Positions 1,265 through 30,790 of a stretch of 32,000 nucleotides of DNA are shown one piece after another. Made by a program: the position numbers and the translations under genes. Where the stretch lies: NCBI GenBank assembly GCA_031546885.1, contig JAVBJS010000017.1:1349-33348 (forward strand), read 5' to 3'. Below the pieces are notes generated by a model. That model searched no databases and had not been told where the DNA came from. It worked only from the letters and a program-made list of their open reading frames with translations. The DNA comes from Desulfovibrio sp. GTDB lineage: Bacteria > Desulfobacterota > Desulfovibrionia > Desulfovibrionales > Desulfovibrionaceae. The stretch's first letter is position 1. Each line of letters begins with the position of its first letter.

Positions 1265-1336
1265 ATATAGTCCTTGTAACTTACTGTGGTACTCGCATAC
1301 TTATCGCCGATAAATCGGCGCTACTCTTGGAATGTT

Positions 1337-1900: not shown

Positions 1901-1966
1901 CTCTGACTGTAAACCTCCCTGTGGTTTGCAAGAGGGTTTTCCTCTGCCAAAACCTTTGATCTCGAT

Positions 1967-7235: not shown

Positions 7236-7266
7236 AGCATATTCCCATGATATTTAATTGTGCAAA

Positions 7267-8004
7267 TTATATACCAGACAACTCCCCCGCAATGAAGTCT
7301 TTTGCCTGCGGGCCGCAATTGAATAGCAGATCCAGCGCCGAAAGGTAAGGAGCAAAGGTGCCGTGCAACTGGGGATATTCGCGTGGCAGGTACGCTTGAA
7401 ACATAAGGTCAATCCCGTGTGCCGCAAACAACTTACGGTCGATATAGTTCTTGCCTGCCGCTCCTTCGTAAAAACATGTTCCTCCAAGGGCGGTGACAAT
7501 ATTGATCAGCCGCTCGTTCTTTCCGCCGTGAACCCCCAGTTGCGAAGAGCGAACAAGAGGGGTGCGGATATCAAAGGATTGACACATCCATTCCAAAATT
7601 GCGATAGTTAAATCGCTTAAAAAGCTCCAGGGCTGATCCAAAATGGCAAAAAAGTCCGGTGCATACTGGGAGAACCAAAGGCTTTTTTTGTAGCTCTGCT
7701 CTAATGTAGCCCTATGTTTTTTTTTCCATTTTGCGGCATCCGCGCAAATAGAAATGCTGTTGAGCCTCTGTTCTGCACAAGCCATTGATGCATGCACGGG
7801 AACAGTCAACCAGCGGACTCCCTGATCTGTTTTTATTCTGTTTCTATTACGCCACCCATGCTTATCAAATGGCACGTCATCATAGAAAACGAAAACATCA
7901 GCACGGGCAATCTGCTCAAAATATCCAATCCATGGGATGTAACTTGGTTGCAAAATACCGATTGTTTTTGCGTTTATTCGTAACGCTGCGTGGTTTTTAA
8001 TCAT
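7267..8004 (-). CDS. WbqC-family protein (glycan-cluster protein of unclear function)
   Basis: IGILQPSYIPWIGYFEQIARADVFVFYDDVPFDKHGWRNRNRI is the characteristic WbqC-like N-terminus. The track start at 8028 is a TTG; the first ATG is 8004. Confidence 0.75.
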   Translation of the reverse strand: MIKNHAALRINAKTIGILQPSYIPWIGYFEQIARADVFVFYDDVPFDKHGWRNRNRIKTDQGVRWLTVPVHASMACAEQRLNSISICADAAKWKKKHRATLEQSYKKSLWFSQYAPDFFAILDQPWSFLSDLTIAILEWMCQSFDIRTPLVRSSQLGVHGGKNERLINIVTALGGTCFYEGAAGKNYIDRKLFAAHGIDLMFQAYLPREYPQLHGTFAPYLSALDLLFNCGPQAKDFIAGELSGI

Positions 8005-8458
8005 ATGTTTTTTTTTAAATTTTCTCAAGCATCTTTACCAGTTCAATCCTGGGCAGCGCCCCCTTCTCAGGCGGGTAAGGACGATCTGGGCAGGCGGTAC
8101 CCCCGTTGACAATGCGTAGTGAAGGGTTTTTGGACGGGCGCAGCATATTACCTAGAGCAATGAATCACTGAAAATTGCAGTTTGTTGAAGCCAAATAAGA
8201 ATCATTTCGGGCTCTGCCCAAACCCGACAGGGACTGTAAAGAGGGCTGCGTAAGGTGCCATTCAGCAATCGTATAGTGTTTCGTGGGTCACTCTACAGCA
8301 AAGCGCGCCACACCTGCACCCGGAATTTTTTGTTTTCTGCAAATAAAAACGCAAGGTTAAGTGTTATATGGCACTAGGCTACGTTGTCGATTTTCCAAAG
8401 CCTTGACGATATATTTTTATGTTGCAATTTAGACTGAAAGTCATACATATCAGCTTTT

Positions 8459-9628
8459 TCACCAAGCATAAAAGACCATTTCAGCCATAAACGGATAGCT
8501 GGTCGCAAAACCCAGTTTGTAGGATGGTTCGATTTGCAGAATTTTTTCAGGCACAGCCACGAGGTCTTTATTGCTGTTGTGGTATCCGGAAATCATGAGT
8601 CGCGGCTTCCATCTTCGCAGCGTGCGCGTGGCTCCGCACAGACATGAAACTTCCGCTCCTTCAATGTCCAATTTCAACACATCCACACGGGATAAATCCC
8701 GTTCTTCAACAAAACTGTCCAAGTCCGTGACTTGGCATGGCGCAGTATCTGCTGTGGAGAACTCACGGAGGCAAGAACTTCCTTGCTTGAGAAAAAGGGG
8801 CATGCTCTGTTGTTTGGAAAAAAGTCCTTGGGGTATGAGCTCCACAACATCCGACCAGGGTGATTTAGTAAGCTCCGCGGCTGCCATAACAAAATTCTCT
8901 TGATTAGGCTCAAAGCCATAAACTTTACCGAAAGGGCCGACGGCATCGGCAAAATGTGCCACTTCGTATAGCCTGGAAGCTATTCCGCCATCTATCACAA
9001 TATCGCCTGGTTGGGGCCAAGTGGCAGGGTGCCGGTAATGCCTGAACGGGGCAAGCTGGATGTAGCCGATATTTCCGGTAATCATCGCTTTGATTGTACC
9101 TGCAAAAGAGGCTTTGCTTTCCTGGTCGTAAAGATTGGAATACACCCACTCCAATGCCGCAGCATGTTTTGAAAAAAAATCTGCATCCTGGCGCGTGCAA
9201 GATGCATCGCTTCGCCGTTCAGGATACATGAAAATATCTTTTCTGTGTTGCAAGACGTGGAACAGAAGAGAGCCAAACAAGGGTTGCTGAAATTCTTTTT
9301 CCCGCTGCATAAAATAGACTAATATATCTGCTTCAGGAGATTCTGCAATGGCGGAAAGAGGTATGATAGGGGCTGGAGGCCGATGAATGCTGTCTGCCAA
9401 AGCGGCAGCACTCTCCGGGTTTATGCATTGGGGAAAGATTACAATGCCCGCCAATGTTGCGTGAGGAGCTTGCTGCGAAATGTATGACAGGGCCGTATCC
9501 AGTTCGGGCAGGCCGACAACGAGTAAAACTCGTTGAGTGCCGGCGTCAAGGCCAAAAGAGACAGACGATTGGCACACGGTAAGGTGCGCTTTCAGAGATG
9601 GGCATTTGTGGGGGTATGTATAGTGCAT
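8459..9628 (-). CDS. FkbM-family SAM methyltransferase with a roughly 190-aa N-terminal domain of unknown function
   Basis: C-terminal half: VIDGGIASRLYEVAHFADAVGPFGKVYGFEPNQENF ... VDVLKLDIEGAEVSCL ... RLMISGYH (FkbM signature). Collinear paralog of 15601-16773. Confidence 0.8.
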   Translation of the reverse strand: MHYTYPHKCPSLKAHLTVCQSSVSFGLDAGTQRVLLVVGLPELDTALSYISQQAPHATLAGIVIFPQCINPESAAALADSIHRPPAPIIPLSAIAESPEADILVYFMQREKEFQQPLFGSLLFHVLQHRKDIFMYPERRSDASCTRQDADFFSKHAAALEWVYSNLYDQESKASFAGTIKAMITGNIGYIQLAPFRHYRHPATWPQPGDIVIDGGIASRLYEVAHFADAVGPFGKVYGFEPNQENFVMAAAELTKSPWSDVVELIPQGLFSKQQSMPLFLKQGSSCLREFSTADTAPCQVTDLDSFVEERDLSRVDVLKLDIEGAEVSCLCGATRTLRRWKPRLMISGYHNSNKDLVAVPEKILQIEPSYKLGFATSYPFMAEMVFYAW

Positions 9629-9887
9629 GTGGCTTCCTTAAAGAATGATCTTTTATTTCAAAGACTTTTTCAGTGGGCTGGTAGACAGGAAGAGAGAGGC
9701 TGTTTAGTGGAATAGCATGAGTCTCCACGGTCAAATGACGTCATAACCCACATATTTCACAAGTACGAACAAGTTCTTGAGATTTTACCTGTATTATTAG
9801 CAATTAACACAATTTCAACCTTACACTTCGCCATACAAATTGCGGATCAGGGGGGAGGGGGTCTGGGGTCGAGGACACAGGCCCTAT

Positions 9888-9927
9888 GGAGGGAAACTCA
9901 AGGGGATCATCCCTTGGGGTTCCCTCC
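9888..9927. repeat. Imperfect 17-18 bp hairpin in a G-rich stretch of an AT-rich spacer
   Basis: GGAGGGAAACTCAAGGGGAT / ATCCCTTGGGGTTCCCTCC are near reverse complements. They are preceded by G6-A-G5-TCT-G4 at 9850-9868. Confidence 0.5.
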
Positions 9928-10123
9928 CCCAGTCTCTCATGAAATATACGGCTAATTACATAGTAAAATTACATAGCAAGCAACGTTGTAATTTGTACTA
10001 AATAATTCCAAACAGAAGCTGCCTTAAAATAAAAGTGCATTACTTTGCTCACTTGCGAGCAAAACCATGAGTAGCGCGCTCCATATGTTATTTTGTAGAG
10101 TAGATAAGTTTATTCTTCTAAAA

Positions 10124-10982
10124 TTAAGGCGCGTTGGCGGGGAATCGCAGACTTTTGAAATCAAAAAGAATGCCATGCCACCCCTGCGCAGCGATATACT
10201 GTGTTGAATCTGTGTATTTACAAAAGGCTTTGGTCAGTCCCTCAATAGAAAATAATACTCTGTGCCCTGGGAAATACCTGTAAATATTAGTTACATCTTG
10301 CGGGTCAGCGTAGAGCAGGTGCTTCCAAGAAGACGCGGATGCGATGGGAAGAGAAACAAAGAGCAACGACTGATTAGAGCAATATGTTGCAAGCTCGTGC
10401 ACCATCAATAGAGGAGTTGCAAGGTGCTCAAGAACATGTATTGCTTAGAACCAGATCATATTTATCCAGCACTATAGAGCTGTTCCACTCCAAGGCCTGC
10501 AGTGCAATGGCATACGCTTCGCAGCCATGCGCAATGGAGACAGGATCGGTGTCGTACCCACAGACTTTTTTTCCCAGATTCGCAGCTACTTTGAGGGCCG
10601 TACCCGTTCCACAACCAATCTCAAGCACAGAAGAAAAATTCTTATAGGCTGCTATCTTGGTAAAAAGATCCTGTGCGTAGCCGATATTTCTTTCCTCTAC
10701 ATTTTTATGATGTGGCAGCCAATTTGAGGGTGAGGGCTTCTCGGAGTGAGCTGGAGCTGGTACAATCCAAAAAGAACGACAGTCGATACAGCAACGAAGC
10801 AATAAACGTGACGCGAGGCTATCAGTAAAAACATACCTGACAGGAACAACATAGGGGCTCTCGCAAGCAGGACATGCTTCTTTGCCTAACAAAAATGCAT
10901 TATCCATATCTCCCAGAGTGACACCAGAAATAGGACTGTGCAGTGAAGCCAGCATAGCGTTGCGATCCAAATCACTATTCAT
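10124..10982 (-). pseudogene. Frameshifted class I SAM methyltransferase with an N-terminal 4-Cys (zinc-ribbon-like) region
   Basis: ORF 10428..10982 carries CPACE...CCIDC and the SAM-binding motif VLEIGCGTGTALK, then stops after DLVLSNTCS. Shifting one nucleotide reads AIHVLEHLATPLLMVHELA..., the classic post-motif-II HVLEH box, and continues as track ORF 10124..10408. The frame break must lie within about 10431-10444. Confidence 0.6.
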
Positions 10983-11133
10983 TACACTTTGCTCATCATT
11001 AAATAGAGAAAAGTCATTTTGAGTCTAGATCAAATTTCAAAACAAACTTGATTTAGAATCAGAATTATAACATTAGAGTAGTTTAACTATGAAATAGGTG
11101 AACTGCTCTGGTAGGTGAAGATACCCTCCTCGG

Positions 11134-11898
11134 TTACGGCGTCATAGCCGCAGGCACAAGGTATAACCTGCCTCCACAAAAATTGGTTTCTTGAACGCTT
11201 AATCCTTTGCAACGGTAGGCTACATAACCATATTCCGAGAATAAATCAGATAGTACTTTCATGCCCCCCGGCAAAAGCGCCTCAATTTGAGGAGGATGAA
11301 CCTCAAGAAATATGCGTGTCCTTTGTTTCGCTAAAATCTCTTTCATTCCTGGCACAGCAAAGACCTCTGCACCTTCTATATCCATTTTGAGAATATCAAT
11401 TTCTTCATCAGCAAAATGAGCGGCAAGCGTTGTGCAAGGCACTACAAACGACGAAATTTCCTCCTGGAAAGAGGAAGAAAGAAAAGCCGCATCAATGGAG
11501 CCTGAACGAGAATATAAAGATTTCCAGAAAGTTACTTCTCCTTCATGTCCCGCAACTGCGCAATTACTATAAAATATCCGTTCACGTAAATCAGGATCAG
11601 ATGTAACTGCGGCTTGCAGTGCTGCAAATCTTGGTGGATCTGGCTCAAATGCGTGAATTCTAGCTGTTTTGGTCATTTCTCTGCTTGCGAGGAACATATA
11701 GAGCCCATACTCAGTTCCTACATCAACAAATACAGATGCCTGAGATATATATTGAATAAACTTTGCTGTAAACTCTTCAAACCAGAACAGCTTTGCCTCA
11801 TCGCGCGTCTGAACGTTGCTTTGGATTATTTTGATTGTGCTTGCAGCATGGTCATACGCTTCTTTAAATCCTGGGCGCGATTCTTCTTGTCCACTCAT
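11134..11898 (-). CDS. FkbM-family SAM methyltransferase (short form)
   Basis: FVDVGTEYGLYMFLASRE...IHAFEPDPPRFAAL ... IDILKMDIEGAEVFAV ... RIFLEVHP. Confidence 0.85.
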   Translation of the reverse strand: MSGQEESRPGFKEAYDHAASTIKIIQSNVQTRDEAKLFWFEEFTAKFIQYISQASVFVDVGTEYGLYMFLASREMTKTARIHAFEPDPPRFAALQAAVTSDPDLRERIFYSNCAVAGHEGEVTFWKSLYSRSGSIDAAFLSSSFQEEISSFVVPCTTLAAHFADEEIDILKMDIEGAEVFAVPGMKEILAKQRTRIFLEVHPPQIEALLPGGMKVLSDLFSEYGYVAYRCKGLSVQETNFCGGRLYLVPAAMTP

Positions 11899-11983
11899 TT
11901 TTGCATAACCTTGTCTTTTTGTACTGTTTCATCGGCGTAGCAATAGCCAAAACTCTTCACAAGGGTATATTTTCCCCTTTGCT

Positions 11984-12880
11984 TCACCCACCTGGACTGA
12001 TGCATCGTTTGCAAATAAAGTTTTCATCTGAGGCGCACTCTCCGGTGATTTTATCAGCCAAGCTCAAAAATTCGCTGCCCTTCAATATTTCGTGCAGGCC
12101 TGCCTTAGTGATATCGCCAAAAACAGTTTCCCGCTGGTAGTCCATACAGCAAAGTATGAGTTCACCCGTGTAAAGAAAATGTAGCCAATCCGTAACACGT
12201 ACACAGGAAAATCCCGTCAGGTCGGGCCGCACATTTTCCACCGTGTGAATATCATTGCGGTGGATGCTGCGTGCTCTGTCGTGGTAGGTAAAAAAGTGAA
12301 TGCTGTGTTTTTTTGTGATGCCGTTTTGTTGAAAAATTTCATTCCAAAAGCACAGATATTCTTCCTTGGAGAAAGAAAAATCGTGCTTAAGCTCAGGCAC
12401 TCTTCCTTCGCCCGCCCCATGAATGCGTATGGTCAGGGGGTGAGACTCTGCTTCTTTCAGCAAGTGAATAATATTACTCAAGCATTGCTCAAAGGGGATG
12501 CCCATGATTCCTTCAAAACTGCGCTTGTCAATGCCGTGAAAACTAAGCCAGATGTCATGCGGCCCCCCCTGCAAGGCAGCAATGAGCTTACGCGCTGCGG
12601 CTTTATCCAAAGCCAGAGCATTGGTGGAAACTTCAATAAGCACCGCTGGAAATGCTTCGCGAATCATTACGATGCGCTCAAATATTTGAGGATCGGCCAG
12701 CGGCTCATTTTCCAGATACGGGCAAATTTTTCTGATAGGCAGCGGCTTGAGCTCTCCCAGAATGCGTCGGAAAACCTGATCTGTCATGCGCCCAGGATTT
12801 TTTTTGTGCCAACTTTCCGGGTATGGGCACATTATGCAGCTGCCCGTGCAGACAGATGTAGTTTGAATTTGTATGTTCAT
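11984..12880 (-). CDS. Radical SAM enzyme with SPASM/twitch-type C-terminal Cys motifs (third paralog)
   Basis: CTGSCIMC eleven residues from the N-terminus. C-terminal CVRVTDWLHFLYTGELILC (C-x13(G)-x4-C) and CKRC. ATGA overlap with the upstream methyltransferase. Confidence 0.85.
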   Translation of the reverse strand: MNIQIQTTSVCTGSCIMCPYPESWHKKNPGRMTDQVFRRILGELKPLPIRKICPYLENEPLADPQIFERIVMIREAFPAVLIEVSTNALALDKAAARKLIAALQGGPHDIWLSFHGIDKRSFEGIMGIPFEQCLSNIIHLLKEAESHPLTIRIHGAGEGRVPELKHDFSFSKEEYLCFWNEIFQQNGITKKHSIHFFTYHDRARSIHRNDIHTVENVRPDLTGFSCVRVTDWLHFLYTGELILCCMDYQRETVFGDITKAGLHEILKGSEFLSLADKITGECASDENFICKRCISPGG

Positions 12881-13707
12881 AACGGTTTTGTGTGCTGCGA
12901 ATAAAAGGTCAAAGGCACGGGCGGCTTTTGCAGGCGCTCGTGCATGTTTGTTTTTGTATGCACGGAATCATAAACACCCAGTATCCAGGGCGATGGCGTC
13001 ATAGGGAACGATGCAAAATCTTTTTGAGCCAGCGCGTCATTTTCGAGCTTTTCAAGAACGATAACCATATTACGCACGGGATCGCGCAAGTCGCAGGAAA
13101 TTTCGCGAATAGTGAACGGGCAGGATTGTAATGCTTCGTTCAACAGTGCCGCATCAATTCGCGCACCATGTTGGCCCTCTCCTACTGCGTGTACTCGTGT
13201 TCCTTCAAACTGGAACAAAAAAAGCCCCCCTGGCTTTAATACCCTTAAGGCTTCTTTGATGTATGCAATAACGACACCCTGATCTATAATATGCTGAAAT
13301 ACACCCGCAGAAACAACAAATTCAACGGTGCTATCTGTAACGTCGTGCAACGAATTTCCATTTGTTAATACATAGCTGACGTTGGGCATGCAGCAACAGT
13401 AACTTTGTGCATTTTCAAGCATGGCGGCAGAGATGTCAACCCCAATGGCTTTCTTAAAATGGCAGGCAAGAATTTTCAAGAATCTTCCAATACCACACCC
13501 AATTTCTAAAACGGCAGAATCCGCACTCTTATAGCTGCCATACAGAGAATATCGCCGCAGCATCTGCTCAACAAAGCGCACTCCCACATTATGAAATTCT
13601 TCAAGATTCCAGCTTGCCCCAGCTTGTAAATGGCTTATGTAATTATATTGACTTTTGGCTGCAAGGGAGTCCCAGGTATTGCGCATTTCATGCAAGGTGT
13701 TTTTCAT
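12877..13707 (-). CDS. Class I SAM-dependent methyltransferase
   Basis: VLEIGCGIGRFLKILA...AIGVDISAAMLENA and LRVLKPGGLFLF motifs. The track ORF extends to 13986 but overlaps the upstream gene, whose stop is at 13724. I chose ATG 13707 (MKNTLHEMRNTWDSLA); 13785 is an alternative. Confidence 0.8.
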   Translation of the reverse strand: MKNTLHEMRNTWDSLAAKSQYNYISHLQAGASWNLEEFHNVGVRFVEQMLRRYSLYGSYKSADSAVLEIGCGIGRFLKILACHFKKAIGVDISAAMLENAQSYCCCMPNVSYVLTNGNSLHDVTDSTVEFVVSAGVFQHIIDQGVVIAYIKEALRVLKPGGLFLFQFEGTRVHAVGEGQHGARIDAALLNEALQSCPFTIREISCDLRDPVRNMVIVLEKLENDALAQKDFASFPMTPSPWILGVYDSVHTKTNMHERLQKPPVPLTFYSQHTKPL

Positions 13708-13723
13708 GGTATCGAGTTTGGCC

Positions 13724-15592
13724 TTAAAATAAAGAATTGTAGTCTGTTCGTTCAAATATGGTGAGATCTCCACCAATGGAGGCATTATGTATTTTTCTTC
13801 CTGCCGCTTCAAATGTTTCTCGTGCAAGTTTAAAATTACGCTCAACATGATAAAGCTGCGGATCATGCCATATTTTATTTTTAAAGTACTCAGGATGAAA
13901 GTGATTTGGATCGTCCTGCTCCGAGCATATTTGGTTCCCAGTAATATGCGCTCCAGAGGGGATAACATAGCGGTGATCCATTCCAATCAAGTACACTTCA
14001 CGGCACCCCAGCCAATAGGCCAGTTGCATATTAGTATAGGATATTGTGTGCCCGCTATATGATCTTTCCGCAAAGCATGTGGAAAAATGAGGTTGATGAT
14101 ACAGAGGTGAACTTTGACTGTAAAAACCTAAATTCAAGCGAAACCAATAGGAGTTGCTCCTATTGCTAATGCTGTCCCAATATTTGGTTGGAATGACGCG
14201 AGTGGCGACGGTATAAGCGTTAATAGCCGCAACATTCGCTTTAACAAATTCTGGGTCTTCCACAGTATAGAACGTGGGGATAAACCCTGTTTCTTCTGTT
14301 TTATAAAATATTCCATTACATGCGATGGTTATATCATCCTGTAGCAGACTAAGGTCATGCAAATTAAGAGACGGCCCGTTCCCTATAATAAAACAGCGCC
14401 TGTTGGCGTACAAGTTTTTCAAAGGCAACAGATCATTCCCATCAATAGGCCAAGGGCCGGGCTCTTCAAAGGTGCCCTGTTTCTCAGTTTTGGCAGACCT
14501 GCTGCCTTCAGCTTTTGCCGATGGGCAAACAGAAATGTGTGACTCTGACAACGTTATTTTTTCAAGCTCATGACGGAGCAGAAGATTCTCTTCTTTCAGA
14601 AGCCGTATTGTTTCTTCATGTTGCAAACGCAAGTACTTTTGTCTATCAAAAAAATGTAGTGCTTGCTGATACGCCACCAACATTGTTTTTGCCAAAGAAT
14701 CTAGGCTTACATTTTTCGTAGATGCAGCCAGCAAAGCAGCCAGATCCTCATCTGGAGATTCTGGCAAAGCGTCTGTGGCCATTGTGCGGAGGTTGCTGTA
14801 GAGTCGCGCTAAAAAACTTGTCTTCATTCGCTCTATCAGTTCATCCGGTACACCCTTTGTCCTGGCATAGGGGAGAAATTCCCTGAGCATCAACCCCATG
14901 GCTTCCACGGTTTCGGCTTTTTCACGCGATGCATTGTTGCACCAGTGGTGCCCATAAGCCATATGTTCAGTGCCTGCGTAACGGGTAGCATGTAGCAGAT
15001 AATGCGAAACCAGCAGTAAATCTTCCCGCCAGTGGCGTACTCCACTTGCTTGTGCACCCTCAAGTATTTTGAGCCACAGATCTCGCGAATACAGTTTGTT
15101 GTAAACGACATGCGCCCGCATGTCGGCATGTACGTAGGTAGAAAAAATATCGGGAGCTAGGAGGCGATCGTTGTAGGGGTGCGCCCATATCCATTCTCCC
15201 CGAAAACTGTGATCTTCGCCCAACATGGCAATGGGAAAATGAACAACATCGGCTTGCTCGTGCAGCATCACTTCTATATTTTTCGCCAACTCCTGTGTTC
15301 CCCACAGAATATCGTCAGCGTCCGCAAAAGCGATAATGCCCCCCCGTGCCTCTTTAATGCCAGTAAGGCGAGCATTTTTTGTGTATTGCCTGGTCGTATG
15401 TTCAATACATCGAATATTCAACCCTTTATCCAAATATTCAATAATAATATCCATGCAATGTTCATCAGAGGCATCATCAACAACGATAACTTCCATAGAA
15501 TGCACGTCTTGCGCAAGAATACTGTCAAGCAGACGCGGCAAAAGGTGCTTATGGTTATAATTGGCAATAACAATAGTAATTATTGGTGGCAT
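13724..15592 (-). CDS. Bifunctional glycosyltransferase: N-terminal GT2 domain, coiled-coil linker, C-terminal DUF115 (MptE-like / Maf-type) domain
   Basis: N-terminus: ITIVIANYNHKHLLPRLLDSILAQ...VIVVDDASDE...AFADADD. Linker: LRLQHEETIRLLKEENLLLRHELEKI. C-terminus: RRCFIIGNGPSLNLHDLSLLQDDITIACNG ... QLAYWLGCREVYLIGMDH. The GNGPSL box and the G-x-D box are the hallmarks I associate with DUF115/motility-accessory-factor and sialyltransferase-like proteins. Confidence 0.8.
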   Translation of the reverse strand: MPPIITIVIANYNHKHLLPRLLDSILAQDVHSMEVIVVDDASDEHCMDIIIEYLDKGLNIRCIEHTTRQYTKNARLTGIKEARGGIIAFADADDILWGTQELAKNIEVMLHEQADVVHFPIAMLGEDHSFRGEWIWAHPYNDRLLAPDIFSTYVHADMRAHVVYNKLYSRDLWLKILEGAQASGVRHWREDLLLVSHYLLHATRYAGTEHMAYGHHWCNNASREKAETVEAMGLMLREFLPYARTKGVPDELIERMKTSFLARLYSNLRTMATDALPESPDEDLAALLAASTKNVSLDSLAKTMLVAYQQALHFFDRQKYLRLQHEETIRLLKEENLLLRHELEKITLSESHISVCPSAKAEGSRSAKTEKQGTFEEPGPWPIDGNDLLPLKNLYANRRCFIIGNGPSLNLHDLSLLQDDITIACNGIFYKTEETGFIPTFYTVEDPEFVKANVAAINAYTVATRVIPTKYWDSISNRSNSYWFRLNLGFYSQSSPLYHQPHFSTCFAERSYSGHTISYTNMQLAYWLGCREVYLIGMDHRYVIPSGAHITGNQICSEQDDPNHFHPEYFKNKIWHDPQLYHVERNFKLARETFEAAGRKIHNASIGGDLTIFERTDYNSLF

Positions 15593-15600
15593 GGGATATT

Positions 15601-16773
15601 CTATGGCTCCACAATTGCATAAATAACAGTTTCACTAAAGTTGGGGAAATGATTCAATAGATATAATTTATATTCTGGAACATATTGTTTTATTATTCCA
15701 GGGAGATGAAGAAGATCCTGGTAAGAATTGTGATACGTGGAAATCATGAGTCTTGGCTTCCATTTCCGCAGGGTTTGTTGCGCTCCATGCAGGCACTCTG
15801 CTTCTGATCCTTCAATGTCGAGCTTAATAACATCAATTCGGGGAATGTTATGCTCACGCACGAATGAGTCTACATCAATCAGGCGGCATGTTGCTGTATT
15901 TTCGTTTTGCTGACTAACTACGCGAGAGCCACCAGCATTTGCGGTGATATGGGCTGAACCTTGCACGGAAGACAGGCCAAAGTTTTGCAGAGAAATAAGA
16001 TCTTTTAACTCACAATTACTGTGCTCTTTTATAAGCTGTTGAAAAAAAGATGGCTCTGGTTCAAAAGCGTACACTTTACCATTTGGTGCGGCAGCCTGCG
16101 CAAAGGCAACGACCTCGAGCAATCGTTCCGATATCCCCCCATCAATGACGATATCGCCCTGGCGTATCCAAGTCAGAGGAAATCTGTAGTTACGGTGTGT
16201 TGGCAGCTTAATAAAGCCGGGATCACCGGTAATGATTCCTTTGATCATTGAGGCCATGGCCGCTTTGCTTTCTGCATCAGAAAAAGCTTCGTATGAATAT
16301 TCCAGCTTACGAGAGTTATTGCGAAAAAAATCAGGTTGGGGATGTGTATACCAGAGAGTATTAGGAATTTCTGGATATATAGCGAAACTCTCTACAATCC
16401 CTGCAAGGGTTCGAATGGCGGCAAAATGATTGTTTGAGGCCTGCGGTGAAGCGGGATCTTCAAGATATACAAGCACGCGAGCGTCTGGATAGTCTATAAT
16501 ATCTTCATAATCAAGTACAGGAATAATAAATTTTCCAGCATCGGACTCTATATGTACAGCGGGAATGACAGCTTTCTTGCAGTCTGGAAACAGAATAATT
16601 CCACAAATTTTTACGTCATGGCATGTTGAACCAATATAAGAGATGGCCTCAGCTACAGCATTTTTTGATGTAACCAGCAAGACGTTCTTTGTATATTTAC
16701 TTAACCCACGCGATATATAAAGTGGGCACTTCAATAGTTGTTCTCTAAGTGTTCCGGCAACGTTTGTTTGCAT
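15601..16773 (-). CDS. FkbM-family SAM methyltransferase with a roughly 190-aa N-terminal domain of unknown function (paralog of 8459-9628)
   Basis: VIDGGISERLLEVVAFAQAAAPNGKVYAFEPEPSFF ... IDVIKLDIEGSEAECL ... RLMISTYH. The track start at 16827 is a TTG. ATG 16773 (MQTNVAG) gives an N-terminus collinear with the paralog. Confidence 0.8.
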   Translation of the reverse strand: MQTNVAGTLREQLLKCPLYISRGLSKYTKNVLLVTSKNAVAEAISYIGSTCHDVKICGIILFPDCKKAVIPAVHIESDAGKFIIPVLDYEDIIDYPDARVLVYLEDPASPQASNNHFAAIRTLAGIVESFAIYPEIPNTLWYTHPQPDFFRNNSRKLEYSYEAFSDAESKAAMASMIKGIITGDPGFIKLPTHRNYRFPLTWIRQGDIVIDGGISERLLEVVAFAQAAAPNGKVYAFEPEPSFFQQLIKEHSNCELKDLISLQNFGLSSVQGSAHITANAGGSRVVSQQNENTATCRLIDVDSFVREHNIPRIDVIKLDIEGSEAECLHGAQQTLRKWKPRLMISTYHNSYQDLLHLPGIIKQYVPEYKLYLLNHFPNFSETVIYAIVEP

Positions 16774-16843
16774 CAAATTATCCAGGTAAAAAAAACATAT
16801 GTAAAAGCTAATCCTCCCTAGCCACAAATACGCCTTTGTATAT

Positions 16844-17812
16844 TTATAATTGCAGAGATTTTATGGTATCTCTTACAACTTCTGCGTTGAGTGCAGTGGC
16901 AACAATCATGGCTTTAGTAAGTGTTTTTTTGTCAAAAAGCCGTAGGGCCTCTTTAAATAGGAGCCCTTGTGGATCAAAACCTTCCGACGCTGCAAGAGAG
17001 AGCCTCCCTGCGGCAACGCGCAATATTTTCAGGTACTTTTCCGAGAAAAGACGCAGTGTTTCCTCTGAGCAGCCCTGCTTTGCATAGTAGGGTAACACTT
17101 CTTCCAGCATGAGATAGGCATAAATGGTTCGCTCCGCCGTGTCTTGATTTCGCTTGCTGACGAAGCGGTAACCGTAGCCAACGTGCTCGCTCCCCGCGTA
17201 TTTGCGCGCATGGAAAAGAAAAAGGGGTGTCAAGTACGTATCTTCCGCATATCGGTAAAACCTGGTCTTCCAGGCCGTGTCAAGAACTTCCAGCCACTTC
17301 GCACGGGAATACAGTTTGTTCCAAACGACATCGCTTGCGTATGGCGTGCGCAGATAGGTGGTAAAGATATTTTCATTGCAGCCAGCAGGCATAAAAGGGT
17401 TGCCAAAATTAAAGTAAGAAGTAAAATCCCCGTGCGCATCGATTATCCCCGAGCGAAATTGCAGCACATCCAAATCGTTGTCGATAAATTGTCTTACGTG
17501 CTTTTCCAGCACCTCGGTACCCCATAGCAGGTCATCGGCATCCGCAAAGGCTATAATATCCGCCGTACTTGCTTTTATTCCAGCCAGTCGCGCGTTCTTG
17601 GTATATAACCGCTGAGGTGCGGTGATAAAGCGTATATTCAGCCCCTTGCTTCTGTAGGCTTCCAGCACATCAGTATAGGGGATGTCAGAATAGTCGTCTG
17701 ACACTACCACTTCCACCTCTCGCAGGGTCTGTGCTAGGATACTATCGAACAACATAGGCAGTGCATGCCCATGATTTCGGTTCGGAATAATTATGGAAAT
17801 AAGCGGCTTCAT
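16844..17812 (-). CDS. Family-2 glycosyltransferase
   Basis: LISIIIPNRNHGHALPMLFDSILAQTLREVEVVVSDDYSD ... IIAFADADDLLWG. Close paralog of 18506-19495 and of the N-terminal domain of 13724-15592. Confidence 0.85.
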   Translation of the reverse strand: MKPLISIIIPNRNHGHALPMLFDSILAQTLREVEVVVSDDYSDIPYTDVLEAYRSKGLNIRFITAPQRLYTKNARLAGIKASTADIIAFADADDLLWGTEVLEKHVRQFIDNDLDVLQFRSGIIDAHGDFTSYFNFGNPFMPAGCNENIFTTYLRTPYASDVVWNKLYSRAKWLEVLDTAWKTRFYRYAEDTYLTPLFLFHARKYAGSEHVGYGYRFVSKRNQDTAERTIYAYLMLEEVLPYYAKQGCSEETLRLFSEKYLKILRVAAGRLSLAASEGFDPQGLLFKEALRLFDKKTLTKAMIVATALNAEVVRDTIKSLQL

Positions 17813-18501
17813 ATAGGACTTCCTTCTGGAAACGCTTGCCAGGCAACCTCCGCCAAGCGGAAATCATCTTCTGTGTCGATATCCAGAGATTCTAGCCTGG
17901 ACATAGGGAAAAGATAAGGTGCTTTCCCTATTCTATTATGCCCATTTTGAAAAAATGATGCGGCTGAGAAGACATAGAGACAACTGTTTTCTTCATATAG
18001 CGGGGCAAGATCCTGGGTGTTCAGCAGGACTGCTGGGTCATGATTTAGCGGAGTAAAATCCGTCTTATAAAAACGGCTCTGATAGGAGAGCACAGAAAAA
18101 AGGGAGTCATAGTTATCCAGCCCATACATATAAGAGCTGATAGCGTTGGCAACAGTACCCGCCCGCAGCATCGGGTTAGTCACATGAGTTTGCAAATAAT
18201 GTCCTTCCCCTAAAAGTTGCAGGTCATAGGCGATAATGCTGTTCATGGAAATAGTATGTCCGCATAAATGCTGCGGACGCTCGTGTATTACAACCTTATC
18301 GTACTGCCTTGCGAGTTTTTCAACAGTACTGCTATCGGTATTAACAACAATGCTGCTGATACATGCTGTGAGCTGCAAGGTTGCCAACACTCGGCATAGC
18401 AATGGCTGTCCGCAGAAATTACGTGTGTTTTTCCCGTGAACCCGTTCCGAGGAGCCTTTAATCGGCACAAGTGCGGAAATTGATGTATGATTCATTTGCA
18501 C
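17809..18501 (-). CDS. Acylneuraminate cytidylyltransferase-family CMP-sugar synthetase
   Basis: ISALVPIKGSSERVHGKNTRNFCGQPLL (the P-x-K-G-S-x-R-x-x-x-KN box of the NeuA/KdsB-like family) and C-terminal LDIDTEDDFRLAE. Confidence 0.8.
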   Translation of the reverse strand: MQMNHTSISALVPIKGSSERVHGKNTRNFCGQPLLCRVLATLQLTACISSIVVNTDSSTVEKLARQYDKVVIHERPQHLCGHTISMNSIIAYDLQLLGEGHYLQTHVTNPMLRAGTVANAISSYMYGLDNYDSLFSVLSYQSRFYKTDFTPLNHDPAVLLNTQDLAPLYEENSCLYVFSAASFFQNGHNRIGKAPYLFPMSRLESLDIDTEDDFRLAEVAWQAFPEGSPI

Positions 18502-18505
18502 GCCC

Positions 18506-19495
18506 TTACGCAGGTTTGGGGAGCACGCCCCTGAGACTGTTTAAGATTTTTTCCGCATTTAACCGATTGCCAAGGAGTAATACGTTGAGCAGTGTATCTT
18601 CATCCGCATGAGTCAGTAATCGCGCGTATGCCTCTTCTGTCAGGGGTGTTATTTTATCACCCACTGCCGCAATGCTTATTTGGCCTGCACGATAACATAA
18701 CTGATGTTCCAAAATGTGCCTGCATAACAAAATCAGATCTTCAGGGCAATTTTTTTTCCTAAGATAGGGTAGTAATTCGTATATGGCATGATAAAAATAT
18801 ATTGCCCGACCGTTAGATTCGGCAATGCGCTCTTCGTAATAGTATGCATACCCAACAGCGGTACTCCCAATATACTTCTTGGCACTATACATAGCCAATA
18901 TAAGTAAGTAGGCATCTTCAATATAACACTTAACCAAAGATGTTGCGGCTCTTTCGTAATTTTCCAGTAAAAGTTTTTTGGAAAAAAGCTTATTCCAGAG
19001 ACTCGAACTTGCCCAAAAAGGAGCTTTTTTAAGGTAGCTACAGAAAATATCTTTTCCCTCAAGCCGTGGAGCAAAAGGGTCCGAATCAGCCGTATACTGT
19101 AGAAATTCACCATTTGCATCAACAATAATCGTTCTAAAATGCACAATATCCGCTTTTTCTTTCAGGAAAAGTAATACATTATACTCTAAAGCATCTGTAC
19201 CCCAAAAAAAATCGTCAGCATCAGCAAAGGCTATGATCTCCGCCTTTGCTGCCATTATACCTGTAAGGCGTGCTTTCATGGTATAAACGCGCTCATGGTG
19301 AGCGATGAAGGTGATACTTAGCCCTTTCCTTCTATATGCTTCAACAATACTGTCACAGGATTTCGCGGAACAGTCGTCAACAAGAATAACTTCTATTTGT
19401 TTTAATGTTTGCGCCAATATACTGTCAAGTAATCTTGACAAGGTTGCATTATGATTGCAGTGAGGAATAATGATGGAGAGGAGTGGGTCTGTCAT
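18506..19495 (-). CDS. Family-2 glycosyltransferase
   Basis: LLSIIIPHCNHNATLSRLLDSILAQTLKQIEVILVDDCS ... IIAFADADDFFWG. Confidence 0.85.
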   Translation of the reverse strand: MTDPLLSIIIPHCNHNATLSRLLDSILAQTLKQIEVILVDDCSAKSCDSIVEAYRRKGLSITFIAHHERVYTMKARLTGIMAAKAEIIAFADADDFFWGTDALEYNVLLFLKEKADIVHFRTIIVDANGEFLQYTADSDPFAPRLEGKDIFCSYLKKAPFWASSSLWNKLFSKKLLLENYERAATSLVKCYIEDAYLLILAMYSAKKYIGSTAVGYAYYYEERIAESNGRAIYFYHAIYELLPYLRKKNCPEDLILLCRHILEHQLCYRAGQISIAAVGDKITPLTEEAYARLLTHADEDTLLNVLLLGNRLNAEKILNSLRGVLPKPA

Positions 19496-19516
19496 TTGTC
19501 AACCTTGCGTAAAGAC

Positions 19517-20200
19517 TTATTTATAAACAGATACTGTACCATTGTCGTGATCAATATTGGTGTCAACACTTAACGCCGGGTTTCCGGCCATAATCTTGTT
19601 GTCACGACACCCCTTATATAGGAAAGCGCCAGGCGCAATTATATTGCCACTGCCGATTCGCGCATTTGCCAATATGACGGAGCGTACCCCAAGGCTATTT
19701 TGCGACCCTATCTGCACATTACCCAATACCAGGCTGAACGGGCCAAAAAAATTTGCGTCACCTACGGTAACATCGTGTCCAATAGTTACTGAGCCATTCA
19801 TATAATTTGCATTGCCAATGACTGTATTGCAGGAAATATATGTCGCACAAGCAAATATATTGGCTTCGCCAATGATTGCTCCAGGCAATATAGTCGTGAC
19901 TGGGTGGATTAACGTAAGAAATTCTACACCTTTTGCCTTCCATTTGTGAAAAGCCTTTGCCCGTAGTGCAGGTAAGCCCAGGCCAAGTACAAAGATGTCA
20001 TTCTGATTCGATGTATACTCGTCATCGATGCCCAATTGCAAATGGGCCAGCTCATGCAGCTCACCAGCGTGCCCTTCAAAGGACAGGAATCCCTTAAAAG
20101 CAAGATCCTTTCGTTGCCGCATGACTTCACACAGTAGCCAATAGCACTCGCGCGCCGCTCCCGCATTCCCAATGATAAGCACATTTCGCATACCGCTCAT
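19517..20200 (-). CDS. NeuD/PglD-family hexapeptide-repeat sugar N/O-acyltransferase
   Basis: N-terminal Rossmann-like VLIIGNAGAARE followed by left-handed beta-helix hexapeptide repeats (IGEANIFACATYISCNTVIGNANYMNGSVTIGHDVTVGDANFFG...). ATGA overlap with the SDR gene. Confidence 0.8.
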   Translation of the reverse strand: MSGMRNVLIIGNAGAARECYWLLCEVMRQRKDLAFKGFLSFEGHAGELHELAHLQLGIDDEYTSNQNDIFVLGLGLPALRAKAFHKWKAKGVEFLTLIHPVTTILPGAIIGEANIFACATYISCNTVIGNANYMNGSVTIGHDVTVGDANFFGPFSLVLGNVQIGSQNSLGVRSVILANARIGSGNIIAPGAFLYKGCRDNKIMAGNPALSVDTNIDHDNGTVSVYK

Positions 20201-20952
20201 TCAAAACCACCAGTCATCAACAAATTTTGGCCTGTAATCCAACGTGATGCAGAGGAAAGCAGATAGGTGGCCGCACCGGCCACATCGTCCGGCGCCCCAA
20301 GCCCCAAGGGATATGTTTGCTCCAACTCGGCAAGGGCACCAGCGCCCAACAGGCCTGCGTATTGCTCTGCCATAGGGGTTGCAACGAGAGCGGGGGAAAT
20401 AGAATTTACGCGCAACCCCGCAGGGGCGAGCTCTTTGCTGATATTGCGAGAGGCGGTTAGCAAAGCCCCCTTCGCCGCACTATAGATAAGTAGTGAGGCT
20501 GTTGGTGTGATGGCTCCAGCCGCAGCAATAAAAACAACAGCCGCGCCTTTGCCCACATTATTACGCCGATCTACAAACCCTTTTGTTAGTAGCATAGGAA
20601 CATGAAACAACAAATCAAACATCCTGTGTGCCGTATTCAAATCGTACTCACGCAGGGGGGCTGTAAGTGTAATTCCTGCGCAAGGCACTAGCCCACTTAG
20701 TTTTCCGTATTTTTCACGCAAAGATTTTATCCAGGCGGGCAGTGCCTCCATATCTTCCATCAACTCGCGTGGCTCTGCATGAAAGCGTTCTGGGCAGGTG
20801 GCACGGATTTTGTTGACCTCCAATCTTTCCCGGTTGCGCCCGCTAGCTATGACGGTTGCACCCAGGGCATTGCACTGCAAGGCAATTGCTTCGCCAATTC
20901 CAGAGCTTGCGCCGGTTACAAGAATACACTGCTCCGCAGTGAAGGAGATCAT
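20197..20952 (-). CDS. Short-chain dehydrogenase/reductase, FabG-like (3-oxoacyl-ACP reductase candidate)
   Basis: ILVTGASSGIGEAIA cofactor motif, YSAAKGAL (YxxxK), 251 aa. ATGA overlap with the ACP gene. Confidence 0.85.
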   Translation of the reverse strand: MISFTAEQCILVTGASSGIGEAIALQCNALGATVIASGRNRERLEVNKIRATCPERFHAEPRELMEDMEALPAWIKSLREKYGKLSGLVPCAGITLTAPLREYDLNTAHRMFDLLFHVPMLLTKGFVDRRNNVGKGAAVVFIAAAGAITPTASLLIYSAAKGALLTASRNISKELAPAGLRVNSISPALVATPMAEQYAGLLGAGALAELEQTYPLGLGAPDDVAGAATYLLSSASRWITGQNLLMTGGFE

Positions 20953-21176
20953 GCCACAGCGCCTTTTGTTAAGGCAACAATATCTGCGACAGTTTGTAAT
21001 GGCTTGAAATCTTTGAATGTCGTTTTTACTTTGAACTTTTTGTCAAGATAGGCAATACACGCCATGACAGCAAGAGAATCCCACTCTTCCATGTCACTTA
21101 AAACAGAATCCAGCGTAATAGATCCTTCCCGTTGTAAAACATCCTGAAATTCTTCCAAAAATTGTGCTGTTGTCAT
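20949..21176 (-). CDS. Acyl carrier protein
   Basis: Small acidic protein with EEWDSLAVMACIAYL (the DSL phosphopantetheine-attachment serine context). I chose ATG 21176 (MTTAQFLEEF), which is preceded by GGAAAG. ATG 21198-21200 is an alternative start. Confidence 0.7.
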   Translation of the reverse strand: MTTAQFLEEFQDVLQREGSITLDSVLSDMEEWDSLAVMACIAYLDKKFKVKTTFKDFKPLQTVADIVALTKGAVA

Positions 21177-21201
21177 AATTCTTTCCACTGTAATAAACAT
21201 A

Positions 21202-22365
21202 TTACGCTGTTGTTTTTCCAGAAATTTTCTTCTGCCAATACTGCAAAACCTGTTCAGAGGTGGGGTGCCCTGCCGGCATTACAAAATCACGCACCCCAGA
21301 GCACCAGATGTTATCCAACGCGACAATGCCGGAAGCCCAAGCAAGCCCCACTCCGTAGCCGGAGAGCAATACCTGCACAGATGAGGTTGTTACTGCCTCA
21401 GTGAGGGTATCACAAATGGCGGAAGGGATGGAGGCCCCGGCCTGGTTGCCATATTTACTGAAAGTCTCATATGAAGCTTTTTCCAGAGGAAATCCAGCAT
21501 TTTCGGCAATTGCCAAGATAATTTGCTTGTTCGCCTGATGAAGAATAAGCTTGTCTATGTCTTCTGGGGTTTTGTTGGCGTAGCATAAGAGATCACGTAT
21601 ATGCACTGGTATCATCGTCATGGTAAACTCAAAGACAGCCCCACCGTCCATATACGTCGAAACCAAGCGCCAAGGAGTACCATTTGGATCGTATATACGC
21701 TCACAGTAGGGGGAAAACTCTTCCATTTTCTTAGGCAATGGCAGACGAGCTCCACCTGCAGGAATCATTAAGGCTTCCGCTCCGCTTCCGTCAGAACCCA
21801 GCACAAACCACGAAGGAGTCGGTTTCGCTGCATACTCAACAAGCGTAGCCGTACCACAATCGCCAAAAATAGGAGTAGTTATTCTATTGTCCTTGTCATC
21901 CAGACGGGCAAGCCCTTCGCCAACAAGAAGAAGTACGCGGGAGCACGCACGCGACTCTAGCAGTGAAGAAGCCAACCATAAGCCATAGGTGAACCCGGCG
22001 CAGCCTTGGTTTACGTCAAAGGCGGCACATGCTTGCGACAATGACAGCTTATGCTGCAATATACACGCCGTTGCAGGTAAGTAATGATCTGGCCCTTGCG
22101 ATACAAATATGATGGCATCAATACTAGCCTTATCAATTTTCATGCCTTCCAGAAGATTTTCCGCCGCCTGCTGACAAAGATCTGCCGCGGTAACACCCTC
22201 TTCCGCAATACGCCGTCGGTCTATACCAACCATTTTCGTGGCGCGTTGAGCTTTTTTAATGTTTCCGTCAAAATATTGAAGTTCATCCAGCAAGCTAATT
22301 TCGTGCGGAGGGACTACGGTGCTAATGCCGCGGATCTGTGCATGTTGAAAGGTAGATTTTGCCAT
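21202..22365 (-). CDS. KAS III (FabH-like) 3-oxoacyl-ACP synthase
   Basis: AFDVNQGCAGFTYGLWLA (active-site Cys), LILHQANKQI (His), KYGNQAGASIPSAI (Asn). This is a complete Cys-His-Asn triad context, as in FabH. Confidence 0.85.
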   Translation of the reverse strand: MAKSTFQHAQIRGISTVVPPHEISLLDELQYFDGNIKKAQRATKMVGIDRRRIAEEGVTAADLCQQAAENLLEGMKIDKASIDAIIFVSQGPDHYLPATACILQHKLSLSQACAAFDVNQGCAGFTYGLWLASSLLESRACSRVLLLVGEGLARLDDKDNRITTPIFGDCGTATLVEYAAKPTPSWFVLGSDGSGAEALMIPAGGARLPLPKKMEEFSPYCERIYDPNGTPWRLVSTYMDGGAVFEFTMTMIPVHIRDLLCYANKTPEDIDKLILHQANKQIILAIAENAGFPLEKASYETFSKYGNQAGASIPSAICDTLTEAVTTSSVQVLLSGYGVGLAWASGIVALDNIWCSGVRDFVMPAGHPTSEQVLQYWQKKISGKTTA

Positions 22366-22371
22366 ATACTC

Positions 22372-30628: not shown

Positions 30629-30790
30629 GGCATATAGCGAATGAAAAGATTTTAGTACCCTGCTGGGCGCGGTAGCGGATACCCGCTTAGTGGGCCGTTT
30701 TATTGGTATTTGAAGAACGGATAAATAAGTTCTTAGACGCATCTTTTTAGTGCAAGAGGCTCCAGTCAGGGTATTTTGATGCTAAGGGTT

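Follow-up and report, generated by a model that had tools for sequence, protein, structure and literature searches.

A GT2 glycosyltransferase fused to a DUF115/Maf/GT42-like domain in a low-GC glycan island of Desulfovibrio sp.

Introduction

The characterised glycosyltransferases of the DUF115/Maf/GT42-like superfamily use cytidine monophosphate (CMP)-activated 2-keto acid sugars, namely pseudaminic (Pse), legionaminic (Leg), N-acetylneuraminic (Neu5Ac) as well as 3-deoxy-D-manno-octulosonic (Kdo) acids, and the Mafs, which modify flagellin, draw on the same four sugars in their CMP-activated form (bioRxiv 10.1101/2020.06.03.131540). The characterised Mafs are built of an N-terminal domain, a MAF_flag10 core and a C-terminal helical or tetratricopeptide repeat (TPR) domain that binds flagellin, or rely on a cis-encoded adaptor, GlfM (PMC11339370; bioRxiv 10.1101/2023.12.03.569772). 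We describe here a gene of Desulfovibrio sp. whose product joins such a core to a glycosyltransferase domain of family GT2. It was found in a stretch of 32,000 nucleotides of contig JAVBJS010000017.1 (assembly GCA_031546885.1), which is called the window hereafter.

The Mafs of M. magneticum (PDB 5MU5), C. botulinum and G. kaustophilus have the PF01973/MAF_flag10 core of our protein; on the other hand the identity with Maf is 16%, a GT2 fusion replaces the Maf flanking domains, and no genes for flagellin or nonulosonate synthesis stand nearby. Cst-II of Campylobacter jejuni (1RO7/1RO8, family GT42) is matched by the profile of our C-terminal domain over almost its whole catalytic domain, and by inference both would take a CMP-sugar donor and an oligosaccharide acceptor. 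Cst-II is however a single-domain, membrane-associated enzyme of lipooligosaccharide (LOS), not a fusion, and its catalytic His188 is not clearly in register with our protein. WaaZ, a protein of the lipopolysaccharide (LPS) core that E. coli K-12 needs for its third Kdo (TIGR04437, WaaZ_KDO_III; KdoIII transferase in NCBIfam), is a remote homolog of the C-terminal domain, so that the fold also serves the addition of Kdo to a glycolipid rather than to flagellin; WaaZ has SGPTSQ where our protein has GNGPSL, consists of one domain only and has its gene in the waa core locus. The capsule polymerases W and Y of N. meningitidis carry, like our protein, two heads on one polypeptide with a linker between them, one for a nucleoside diphosphate (NDP)-hexose and one for a CMP-acid sugar (PMC6048754). 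These are proven polymerases, accompanied in their group-2 capsule locus by export genes, which the window does not have.

The original prediction, made from the letters of the window, saw in this gene a two-headed transferase that adds a CMP-activated acidic sugar, and linked it to flagellin modification by Mafs. Our data partly support this proposal. A real two-headed glycosyltransferase whose second head lies in the superfamily of CMP-acid-sugar transferases remains the best reading, while the Maf-type link with flagellin is not supported: the protein appears as a widespread module of the polysaccharide type.

Results

Architecture of the fusion

The open reading frame (ORF), given as 622 residues with an ATG start codon in the mechanical ORF list, is matched by two Pfam families. 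Residues 6-121 fall to Glycos_transf_2 (PF00535; 75.8 bits against a cutoff of 23.3), residues 390-542 to MptE-like (PF01973, formerly DUF115/MAF_flag10; 67.1 bits against 34.6). The PF01973 score was 69.1 bits for the C-terminal domain by itself. The DADD motif falls at residues 91-94, GNGPSL at 404-409 and LIGMD at 535-539. An AlphaFold2 model of the full protein, built on 63 homologs, has a mean predicted local distance difference test (pLDDT) of 89 and displays a GT-A domain, a helix (297-352), a disordered segment (352-374) and a compact C-terminal domain; the isolated C-terminal domain was modelled with a pLDDT of 93 and a predicted template modelling score (pTM) of 0.92. The protein is thus one polypeptide in which a helix and a flexible linker connect two catalytic-type domains that fold independently. 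The ORF, the Pfam matches, the motif positions and the model all agree with the predicted fusion, and the hidden Markov model (HMM) search confirmed its C-terminal half as DUF115. The predicted "heptad-like linker" fared less well: the long helix is there, but its heptad character is weak, the a/d positions being hydrophobic in 62-69% of cases against 43% overall. The first part of this helix is common to stand-alone GT2 paralogs, and its extension is found only in the fusion.

The N-terminal head

The N-terminal domain is a DxD-type GT-A/GT2 glycosyltransferase, as shown by its HMM score above threshold, its DxD motif and its GT-A fold. It is 35-37% identical, over about 320 residues, to the products of two stand-alone GT2 genes of the same array, with which it shares VVDD, FADADD and an ED pair; compared with them the fusion has a terminal helix with an insertion and an extension, followed by the linker and the second domain. 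The longer paralog (329 residues) is kept in the orthologous Desulfovibrio-type clusters L001, L086 and L087.

The closest PDB folds are TarS, TarP, RmlT and CgT (Foldseek E ~1e-15 to 1e-13), all soluble DxD GT-A enzymes which add single sugars onto a pre-formed polymer or oligosaccharide. TarS, TarP and RmlT, wall-teichoic-acid glycosyltransferases of family GT2, are the nearest structures, yet their identity with our N-terminal domain is only 16-20%. Besides, their C-terminal extensions serve oligomerisation, whereas the C-terminal extension of our protein is a second catalytic-type domain, not a trimerisation domain.

The C-terminal head

Searched as a single sequence with phmmer, the C-terminal domain had no match among PDB sequences, and PF01973 was its sole Pfam family at E<=1, with no match to CST-I. 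A family profile of 23 sequences, searched against the PDB sequences, found Cst-II as best match (E=3e-4 over ~190 columns), with an alignment covering the GNGPSL loop and the CN(G/Q)xxY, G(Q/H)xxT and G(M/I)D boxes. Weaker matches were a CMP-Neu5Ac:LOS sialyltransferase and the archaeal MptE (E=0.035 each) and Maf 5MU5 (E=0.34). By fold the order differs: Maf 5MU5 comes at the top (Foldseek E=7e-7, 247 columns, TMq 0.57, 16% identity), then archaeal MptE 8SD5 (E=1.6e-4, 18% identity) and human ST8SiaIII with CTP, 5BO7 (E=6e-4); thiamin pyrophosphokinases stand lower in the list. The fold supports the predicted relationship with Mafs and sialyltransferases, and the profile supports, marginally, that with Cst-II. 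Of the two structures named beforehand for the fold comparison, Maf was the top match and Cst-II was absent from the top 50. The homology with E. coli WaaZ was detected by hhalign (88% probability, E=3e-6, 159 columns); WaaZ itself matches PF01973, below threshold.

About 50 positions are invariant across the 23 diverse C-terminal domains, among them R399, G404-N410, N426, V444-E445-D446, G537/D539 and D561/N563/H564/F565. Such an invariance in diverse sequences argues for an active enzyme, and these positions cluster in motifs aligned with the CMP-sugar site of Cst-II. The GNGPSL box is invariant in 23/23 sequences and nearly so (>=90%) among 63. The LIGMD segment (profile positions 136-183) aligns with residues 389-436 of 5MU5, though with an E of 0.34 only, and this stretch includes Maf D415. 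In the Maf of M. magneticum the catalytic acidic residues are E324 and D415 (bioRxiv 10.1101/2020.06.03.131540); the acidic residue of the GxD box is probably the equivalent of the essential D415, and the invariant E445 and D446 are candidates for that of E324. The DDPNHFH box, a candidate catalytic-base region, lies 7 residues upstream of the position aligned, with low confidence, to His188, the catalytic base of Cst-II, whose Tyr156 and Tyr162 bind the phosphate.

The C-terminal domain thus belongs to the DUF115/Maf/GT42-like superfamily, with all its family-invariant motifs kept, and falls in none of its named families. It is not an ortholog of WaaZ (TIGR04437, 19.8 bits against a cutoff of 200). 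Nor is it the 6-hydroxymethylpterin pyrophosphokinase MptE, since the likeness to 8SD5 is at the level of the fold only and the gene context is glycan biosynthesis throughout. The reading as a true Maf was rejected on architecture, gene context and profile score (E=0.34).

The cytidylyltransferase partner

The strongest functional clue is the CMP-sugar synthetase gene two genes upstream of the fusion, at the place where the original prediction had put it. Its product is nearest, among PDB entries, to CMP-Neu5Ac synthetases (E ~1e-11), and scores 83 bits against the PseF model, under the cutoff of 205. The same gene is the immediate upstream neighbour of the fusion in three orthologous loci of the D. 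desulfuricans type. It also occurs within a few genes of a C-terminal domain homolog in a capsule-type locus of Campylobacter coli (51% identity to our protein on the C-terminal domain) and in a metagenomic locus, L088 (31% over the full length). The window cytidylyltransferase is 62% identical, full length, to the D. desulfuricans-type enzymes and 46% to those of C. coli and L088; a comparison with E. coli KdsB gives ~25% over 75 residues. We then considered 80 related C-terminal domain loci drawn from GTDB species representatives, looking for neighbours within 10 kb: an HMM of this subfamily found a cytidylyltransferase in 48/80, and several of the loci lacking a match are very short contigs. 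The conserved adjacency, the 46-62% identity and this count indicate that the pairing of activating enzyme and transferase is conserved across phyla. None of the cytidylyltransferases of the family loci reaches the cutoff of any NCBIfam equivalog.

A second partner emerges from the same loci. A D-2-hydroxyacid dehydrogenase, similar to phosphoglycerate dehydrogenase (PGDH) or glyoxylate reductase, is present in 46/80, mostly right beside the cytidylyltransferase, and in the loci examined a short-chain dehydrogenase/reductase (SDR) and a GT2 accompany both. Nine loci, plus that of C. coli, also contain an HpcH/HpaI aldolase, nearest to the 2-keto-3-deoxy-sugar-acid aldolases YfaU, HpaI and GarL; most of them have in addition an NAD-epimerase and a HAD phosphatase, a set seen in Bacteroidota, Bdellovibrionota-type metagenome-assembled genomes and C. 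coli. This cassette, none of whose enzymes attains the cutoff of an NCBIfam equivalog, may be a route to a CMP-activated acid sugar outside the current curated models. A targeted search found the aldolase/2-hydroxyacid dehydrogenase/HAD cassette neither in the window nor near the Desulfovibrio-type orthologs. We found no description of it in the literature searched, most subscription journals being outside its scope.

The capsule-type locus of C. coli (L003:443-9996) further encodes, for sulfate activation, a protein of the 3'-phosphoadenylylsulfate (PAPS) reductase family, a GTPase subunit and an adenylylsulfate (APS) kinase, along with a sulfotransferase and several DUF8374 proteins, which suggests a sulfated capsule containing the acid sugar of the cassette.

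Breadth of the family

A word-indexed search with the target protein returned 87 homologs. Seven relatives are full-length orthologs (606-615 residues, 46-49% identity), including that of D. desulfuricans. Dozens of GT2+PF01973 proteins of 850-960 residues come from Mesorhizobium, Frankiales and many metagenome-assembled genomes, and in other relatives the domain is joined to GT4/GT1 or methyltransferase domains, or makes up a stand-alone protein of ~370 residues. An exhaustive phmmer search with the C-terminal domain, against 1.84 billion cluster representatives (50%-identity clusters), gave 5892 matches at E<=1e-3; a threshold of 1e-10 left 3446 of them, and one of 1e-30 left 493. Of the top 150, only about 11 have fewer than 450 residues, most have 600-2500, and some two dozen carry 2-4 copies of the domain. 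A scan of genome contigs with the target protein alone found no close relative, while a scan of the contigs with the alignment recovered the wider C-terminal domain family.

In 136 ORFs that neighbour the family genes at 11 loci, the prevailing Pfam assignments were GT2, CTP_transf_3, more MptE-like proteins, epimerases/dehydratases, 2-hydroxyacid dehydrogenases, SDRs, methyltransferases, GT1/GT4 and ABC_tran, and one family locus has a Wzy-like gene. The architecture is therefore a routine building block of multidomain glycosyltransferases. The original prediction named no characterised example of the fusion, and we found none either, which is weak evidence given the scope of the literature mentioned above; the rarity that it implied is wrong, with 3446 relatives at the middle threshold. 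Our protein is an uncharacterised subfamily and architecture inside a known superfamily and a known design principle.

The surrounding island

The gene is part of a long co-directional array (Table 1), within an island of at least 23 kb in the window whose GC content is 41-48%, against 52-57% in the flanks, and none of whose products is rich in transmembrane segments. The ORF at its left end runs off the window, so the island reaches beyond it, with a further multidomain glycosyltransferase.

The gene content reads as the synthesis of one or several dTDP-4-amino-4,6-dideoxyhexoses, N-acylated with a short 3-hydroxyacyl group, together with a CMP-sugar, at least five glycosyltransferase domains and extensive methylation. 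Two DegT aminotransferases are encoded, and the methyltransferases number four of the FkbM type and two to three of class I. The match to WecF hints at the transfer of a 4-acylamino-4,6-dideoxyhexose to a lipid-linked glycan. The block formed by the 3-ketoacyl-ACP synthase III (KAS III, FabH-like), acyl carrier protein (ACP), SDR and NeuD-type acyltransferase probably makes the short 3-hydroxyacyl group for N-acylation of the amino sugar, and it is also present in D. desulfuricans-type clusters. The radical SAM (rSAM) neighbours of 709 and 520 residues seen in D. desulfuricans are absent from the window, save for one marginal rSAM match (E ~1e-3).

As for gene boundaries, the stop codon of the FkbM methyltransferase gene upstream lies 8 nt ahead of the ATG of the fusion. 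The methyltransferase ORF downstream is listed with a TTG start and then overlaps the fusion by 263 nt; an ATG at 13707, 14 nt past the stop of the fusion, is most plausibly a better start. The split methyltransferase likely reflects a frameshift, either in a pseudogene or through a sequencing error.

Right downstream of the fusion, two orthologous clusters contain transposase/integrase remnants (HTH_Tnp_1, HTH_21 and rve; L001:16885-18000 and L086:10997-11176). These remnants and the low GC of the island in the window suggest a mobile or variable surface-glycan island. At the other end of the window a phosphomannomutase/phosphoglucomutase-like gene with a TASHNP motif (30786-32000, plus strand) runs off the right edge; the ORF of 296 residues listed on the minus strand at 30924-31814 is spurious, since this gene occupies the plus strand there.

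Table 1. Coordinates, strand and supporting evidence for the fusion gene, its parts, its neighbours in the window and related loci elsewhere
Feature	Position	Strand	Basis
Whole ORF, GT2 / helix-linker / DUF115-like bifunctional glycosyltransferase	13724..15592	-	ORF list, Pfam, AlphaFold2, full-length orthologs
N-terminal GT2/GT-A domain, ~residues 1-275	14768..15592	-	PF00535 75.8 bits; PDB folds; paralog identity
DADD (D91-D94), DxD metal/NDP-sugar motif of GT2 domain	15311..15322	-	Motif position; invariant FADADD in three paralogs
Long alpha-helix, residues 297-352	14537..14704	-	DSSP on AlphaFold2 model; paralog alignment; weak heptad pattern
Flexible interdomain linker, ~residues 353-385	14438..14536	-	pLDDT <50 at 352-374; Ser/Lys/Glu-rich
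C-terminal DUF115/MptE-like, sialyltransferase-like domain, residues 390-622	13727..14425	-	PF01973, AlphaFold2, Foldseek, profile, hhalign
GNGPSL box, residues 404-409, opposite the nucleotide-binding loop of Cst-II (G8-L13) in the alignment	14366..14383	-	Invariance; Cst-II alignment
LIGMD box, residues 535-539	13976..13990	-	Invariant G537/D539; D539 aligned with Cst-II D154
DDPNHFH box, residues 560-566, family-invariant	13895..13915	-	Invariant D561, N563, H564, F565
Glycan-biosynthesis island, soluble proteins only, past left window edge	2..23511	-	Pfam/NCBIfam scans, GC, transmembrane check
Long ORF ending in another GT2 domain	2-1300	-	Cut by window edge; ~385 residues of unannotated N-terminal sequence, then GT2 start
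WecF-like glycosyltransferase, 372 residues	1967-3085	-	No Pfam match; C-terminal half against NCBIfam WecF (TDP-Fuc4NAc:lipid II transferase, GT56) E=2e-15
Two rSAM-SPASM proteins, then a third between the frameshifted and a class-I methyltransferase	island	-
PseC/ArnB/WecE-like aminotransferase and DesI-like aminotransferase	island	-
dTDP-glucose 4,6-dehydratase	island	-	348 bits against cutoff 365
WbqC	island	-
FkbM methyltransferases	8459, 11134, 15601	-
Class-I methyltransferase, apparently frameshifted	10127-10982	-	ORF 10428-10982 covers N-terminal part of models only; second frame 10127-10444 carries VLEHL-type motif
Class-I methyltransferase directly downstream of fusion	12877-13986 as listed	-
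GT2, cytidylyltransferase, GT2 trio upstream of fusion	16844-19495	-
Stand-alone GT2 paralog, 322 residues	16844..17812	-	Pfam; 37% identical to N-terminal domain
Cytidylyltransferase CTP_transf_3, NeuA/PseF-like, presumed CMP-donor supplier	17809..18501	-	Pfam; PDB likeness; conserved linkage
Stand-alone GT2 paralog, 329 residues	18506..19495	-	Pfam; 35% identical to N-terminal domain
NeuD-type hexapeptide acyltransferase, SDR, ACP, FabH-like KAS III	19517-22365	-	Conserved block
ACP, 83 residues, DSL motif	20949-21200	-
Cassette examples in related loci	L003:13940-18942, L088:5639-9505, L013:5401-9949, plus 46/80 of loci L005-L084

Discussion

The balance tips slightly towards a bifunctional, soluble glycosyltransferase responsible for two distinct steps in the synthesis of a heavily methylated, N-acylated surface glycan encoded by the low-GC island. 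The GT2 head would use an NDP-sugar donor and a divalent metal, and act as an inverting enzyme. The C-terminal head, to judge from its sequence relatives, would take as donor a CMP-activated 2-keto acid sugar of Kdo, nonulosonate or other ulosonate type, supplied by the dedicated NeuA/PseF-like cytidylyltransferase. By analogy with Cst-II and Maf its transfer would be metal-independent and inverting, with D539 of the LIGMD box and the histidines of DDPNHFH as candidate catalytic residues. The two transfers would follow one another on a single growing oligosaccharide or polysaccharide, with one head passing its product to the other, a hand-over that the flexible tether would allow. The acceptor would most likely be a glycan intermediate and not flagellin itself; the WecF-like glycosyltransferase of the island, whose characterised homolog acts on a lipid-linked glycan, supports a glycan.

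Several observations nevertheless weigh against this scheme. The use of a CMP-sugar rests on remote homology, because no characterised member of the C-terminal domain subfamily was found; the profile match to Cst-II is marginal, His188 of Cst-II standing opposite a Lys in a low-confidence stretch, with the invariant His564 and His566 7-9 residues upstream; and MptE, a relative, acts as a pyrophosphokinase and not as a glycosyltransferase. A targeted search of the window revealed no NeuB/PseI, KdsA, HpcH aldolase or 2-hydroxyacid dehydrogenase. Besides, the island encodes no initiating phosphoglycosyltransferase, flippase, polymerase, ABC exporter or any membrane protein, and such a soluble-only pattern is equally typical of islands for the cytoplasmic glycosylation of proteins such as flagellin.

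This last point leads to a different scheme, in which the C-terminal head would act like a Maf, adding a CMP-nonulosonate or Kdo to flagellin or to a sugar linked to it, and the GT2 head would extend the O-glycan of flagellin or of another protein. Maf 5MU5 is indeed the top structural match of the C-terminal domain, which has the central MAF_flag10 fold, the island is wholly soluble, without genes for a lipid carrier or export, and it contains weak PseC-, PseH- and PseF-like matches. The association of FabH-like, ACP, SDR, DegT and acyltransferase genes with FkbM methyltransferases resembles the flagellin glycosylation islands of P. aeruginosa and C. difficile. The Maf flanking domains are however not present, the GT2 domain and linker standing ahead of the core and the protein ending right after it, at residue 622; the profile similarity to Maf is weaker than that to Cst-II, and every Pse-type match is under its curated cutoff. 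Pfam and NCBIfam scans and the targeted search detected in the window no flagellin, Maf-type N-domain, NeuB/PseI, PseG or KdsA-type synthase gene. The same holds beyond the window: there is no flagellar gene within 10 kb of the fusion in three orthologous clusters, no flagellin in any of the 80 family loci, and family members are frequent, within polysaccharide clusters, in lineages usually regarded as non-flagellated (relatives are found in Mucilaginibacter, Flavobacterium, Anaerolineae, Mycobacteriales and a cyanobacterium). The organism itself is flagellated, as the flagellar genes predicted about 13 kb away suggest, although only one of them stands. FliJ (28518-28958) is real, with 70.8 bits against the cutoff of 50.45 of TIGR02473, whereas the adjacent "motE-like" ORF (28816-29847, plus strand), Ala/Pro-rich and of low complexity in its middle, gives only a weak match to FlbB, a protein of the periplasmic flagellar collar (29.6 bits against 110). 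Moreover fliJ lies on the opposite strand, beyond genes for TPR, AMIN and MurJ proteins, where the GC content is 52-54% and not that of the island. Some Mafs, those of the Maf-2 type, have no flagellin-binding domain and depend on a separate adaptor (bioRxiv 10.1101/2023.12.03.569772), and the gene of a TPR protein stands beside the island (24334-25608, plus strand, divergent from it; 424 residues with C-terminal TPR repeats and 340 unannotated N-terminal residues). By analogy with Maf-1 and FlmG systems, in which TPR domains bind flagellin, it could be an acceptor adaptor. The soluble-only island, its acyl-amino-sugar and FkbM content, the adaptor-dependent Mafs and the adjacent TPR protein are the reasons why we regard flagellin or protein modification as unlikely but still worth keeping in mind.

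A special case of the bifunctional surface-glycan enzyme that we favour would be a heteropolymer polymerase, whose heads alternate to build a [hexose - acid sugar]n chain as those of N. meningitidis W and Y do, the coiled-coil-like helix serving oligomerisation or length control. The domains of the W and Y polymerases are GT4 and GT97, and those of our protein are assigned to other families. The layout in three parts—hexosyltransferase, intervening sequence, CMP-sugar transferase—is that of the W polymerase (PMC6048754), a long helix separates the heads of our protein, its relatives are typically large and multidomain, some with 2-4 C-terminal domain copies, and ABC_tran genes stand near some of them. 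Yet the window has no KpsMT, KpsCS or Wzm-Wzt export genes, and an island with at least five other glycosyltransferases and many tailoring enzymes fits a complex oligosaccharide better than a disaccharide repeat; a polymerase therefore seems to us rather improbable. At the opposite, the C-terminal domain might not transfer sugars at all, being an MptE-like phospho- or pyrophosphotransferase, or a dead scaffold or acceptor-binding module on an active GT2. The Pfam family is after all named for MptE, a 6-hydroxymethylpterin pyrophosphokinase, 8SD5 is the second fold match with also a weak profile match, thiamin pyrophosphokinases follow in the fold list, and no ulosonate synthase is encoded nearby. 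But the clustering of the ~50 invariant residues in motifs aligned to the Cst-II CMP-sugar site, the tight co-occurrence with a CMP-forming cytidylyltransferase rather than with kinases or pterin genes, and the glycosyltransferase Maf as top fold match make such a loss or change of function very improbable.

Coming back to the bifunctional glycosyltransferase, a broader proposal can be put forward, which we regard as doubtful. The C-terminal domains would form a very large family of CMP-dependent transferases, marked by GNGPSL...VED...GMD...DDPNHFH, and travelling with their own cytidylyltransferase subfamily and a D-2-hydroxyacid dehydrogenase. The pathway would lead to a CMP-acid sugar distinct from Kdo and from the classical nonulosonic acids, and the enzyme of the window would add this sugar next to a hexose in a surface glycan of Desulfovibrio type. 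One candidate is a 3-deoxy-hex- or hept-2-ulosonic or -ulosaric acid, formed by pyruvate aldol condensation.

If the C-terminal domain is indeed a CMP-acid-sugar transferase acting on glycans, the chemistry of DUF115 extends beyond flagellin (Maf) and the LPS inner core (WaaZ), and the domain would count among the mainstream modules that multidomain polysaccharide synthases use in many phyla. Most of these proteins are now annotated just "glycosyltransferase" or, misleadingly, "MptE-like pterin kinase"; an MptE-like annotation in Campylobacter has been taken as a folate-pathway enzyme (PMC12102941). With one member defined biochemically, such annotations would be corrected, there would be a handle on the CMP-synthetase/2-hydroxyacid dehydrogenase cassette, and the chemo-enzymatic toolbox for acidic glycans would gain a two-headed enzyme. 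For the locus described here, it would help to establish which surface glycan is made by a gut or environmental organism of Desulfovibrio type.

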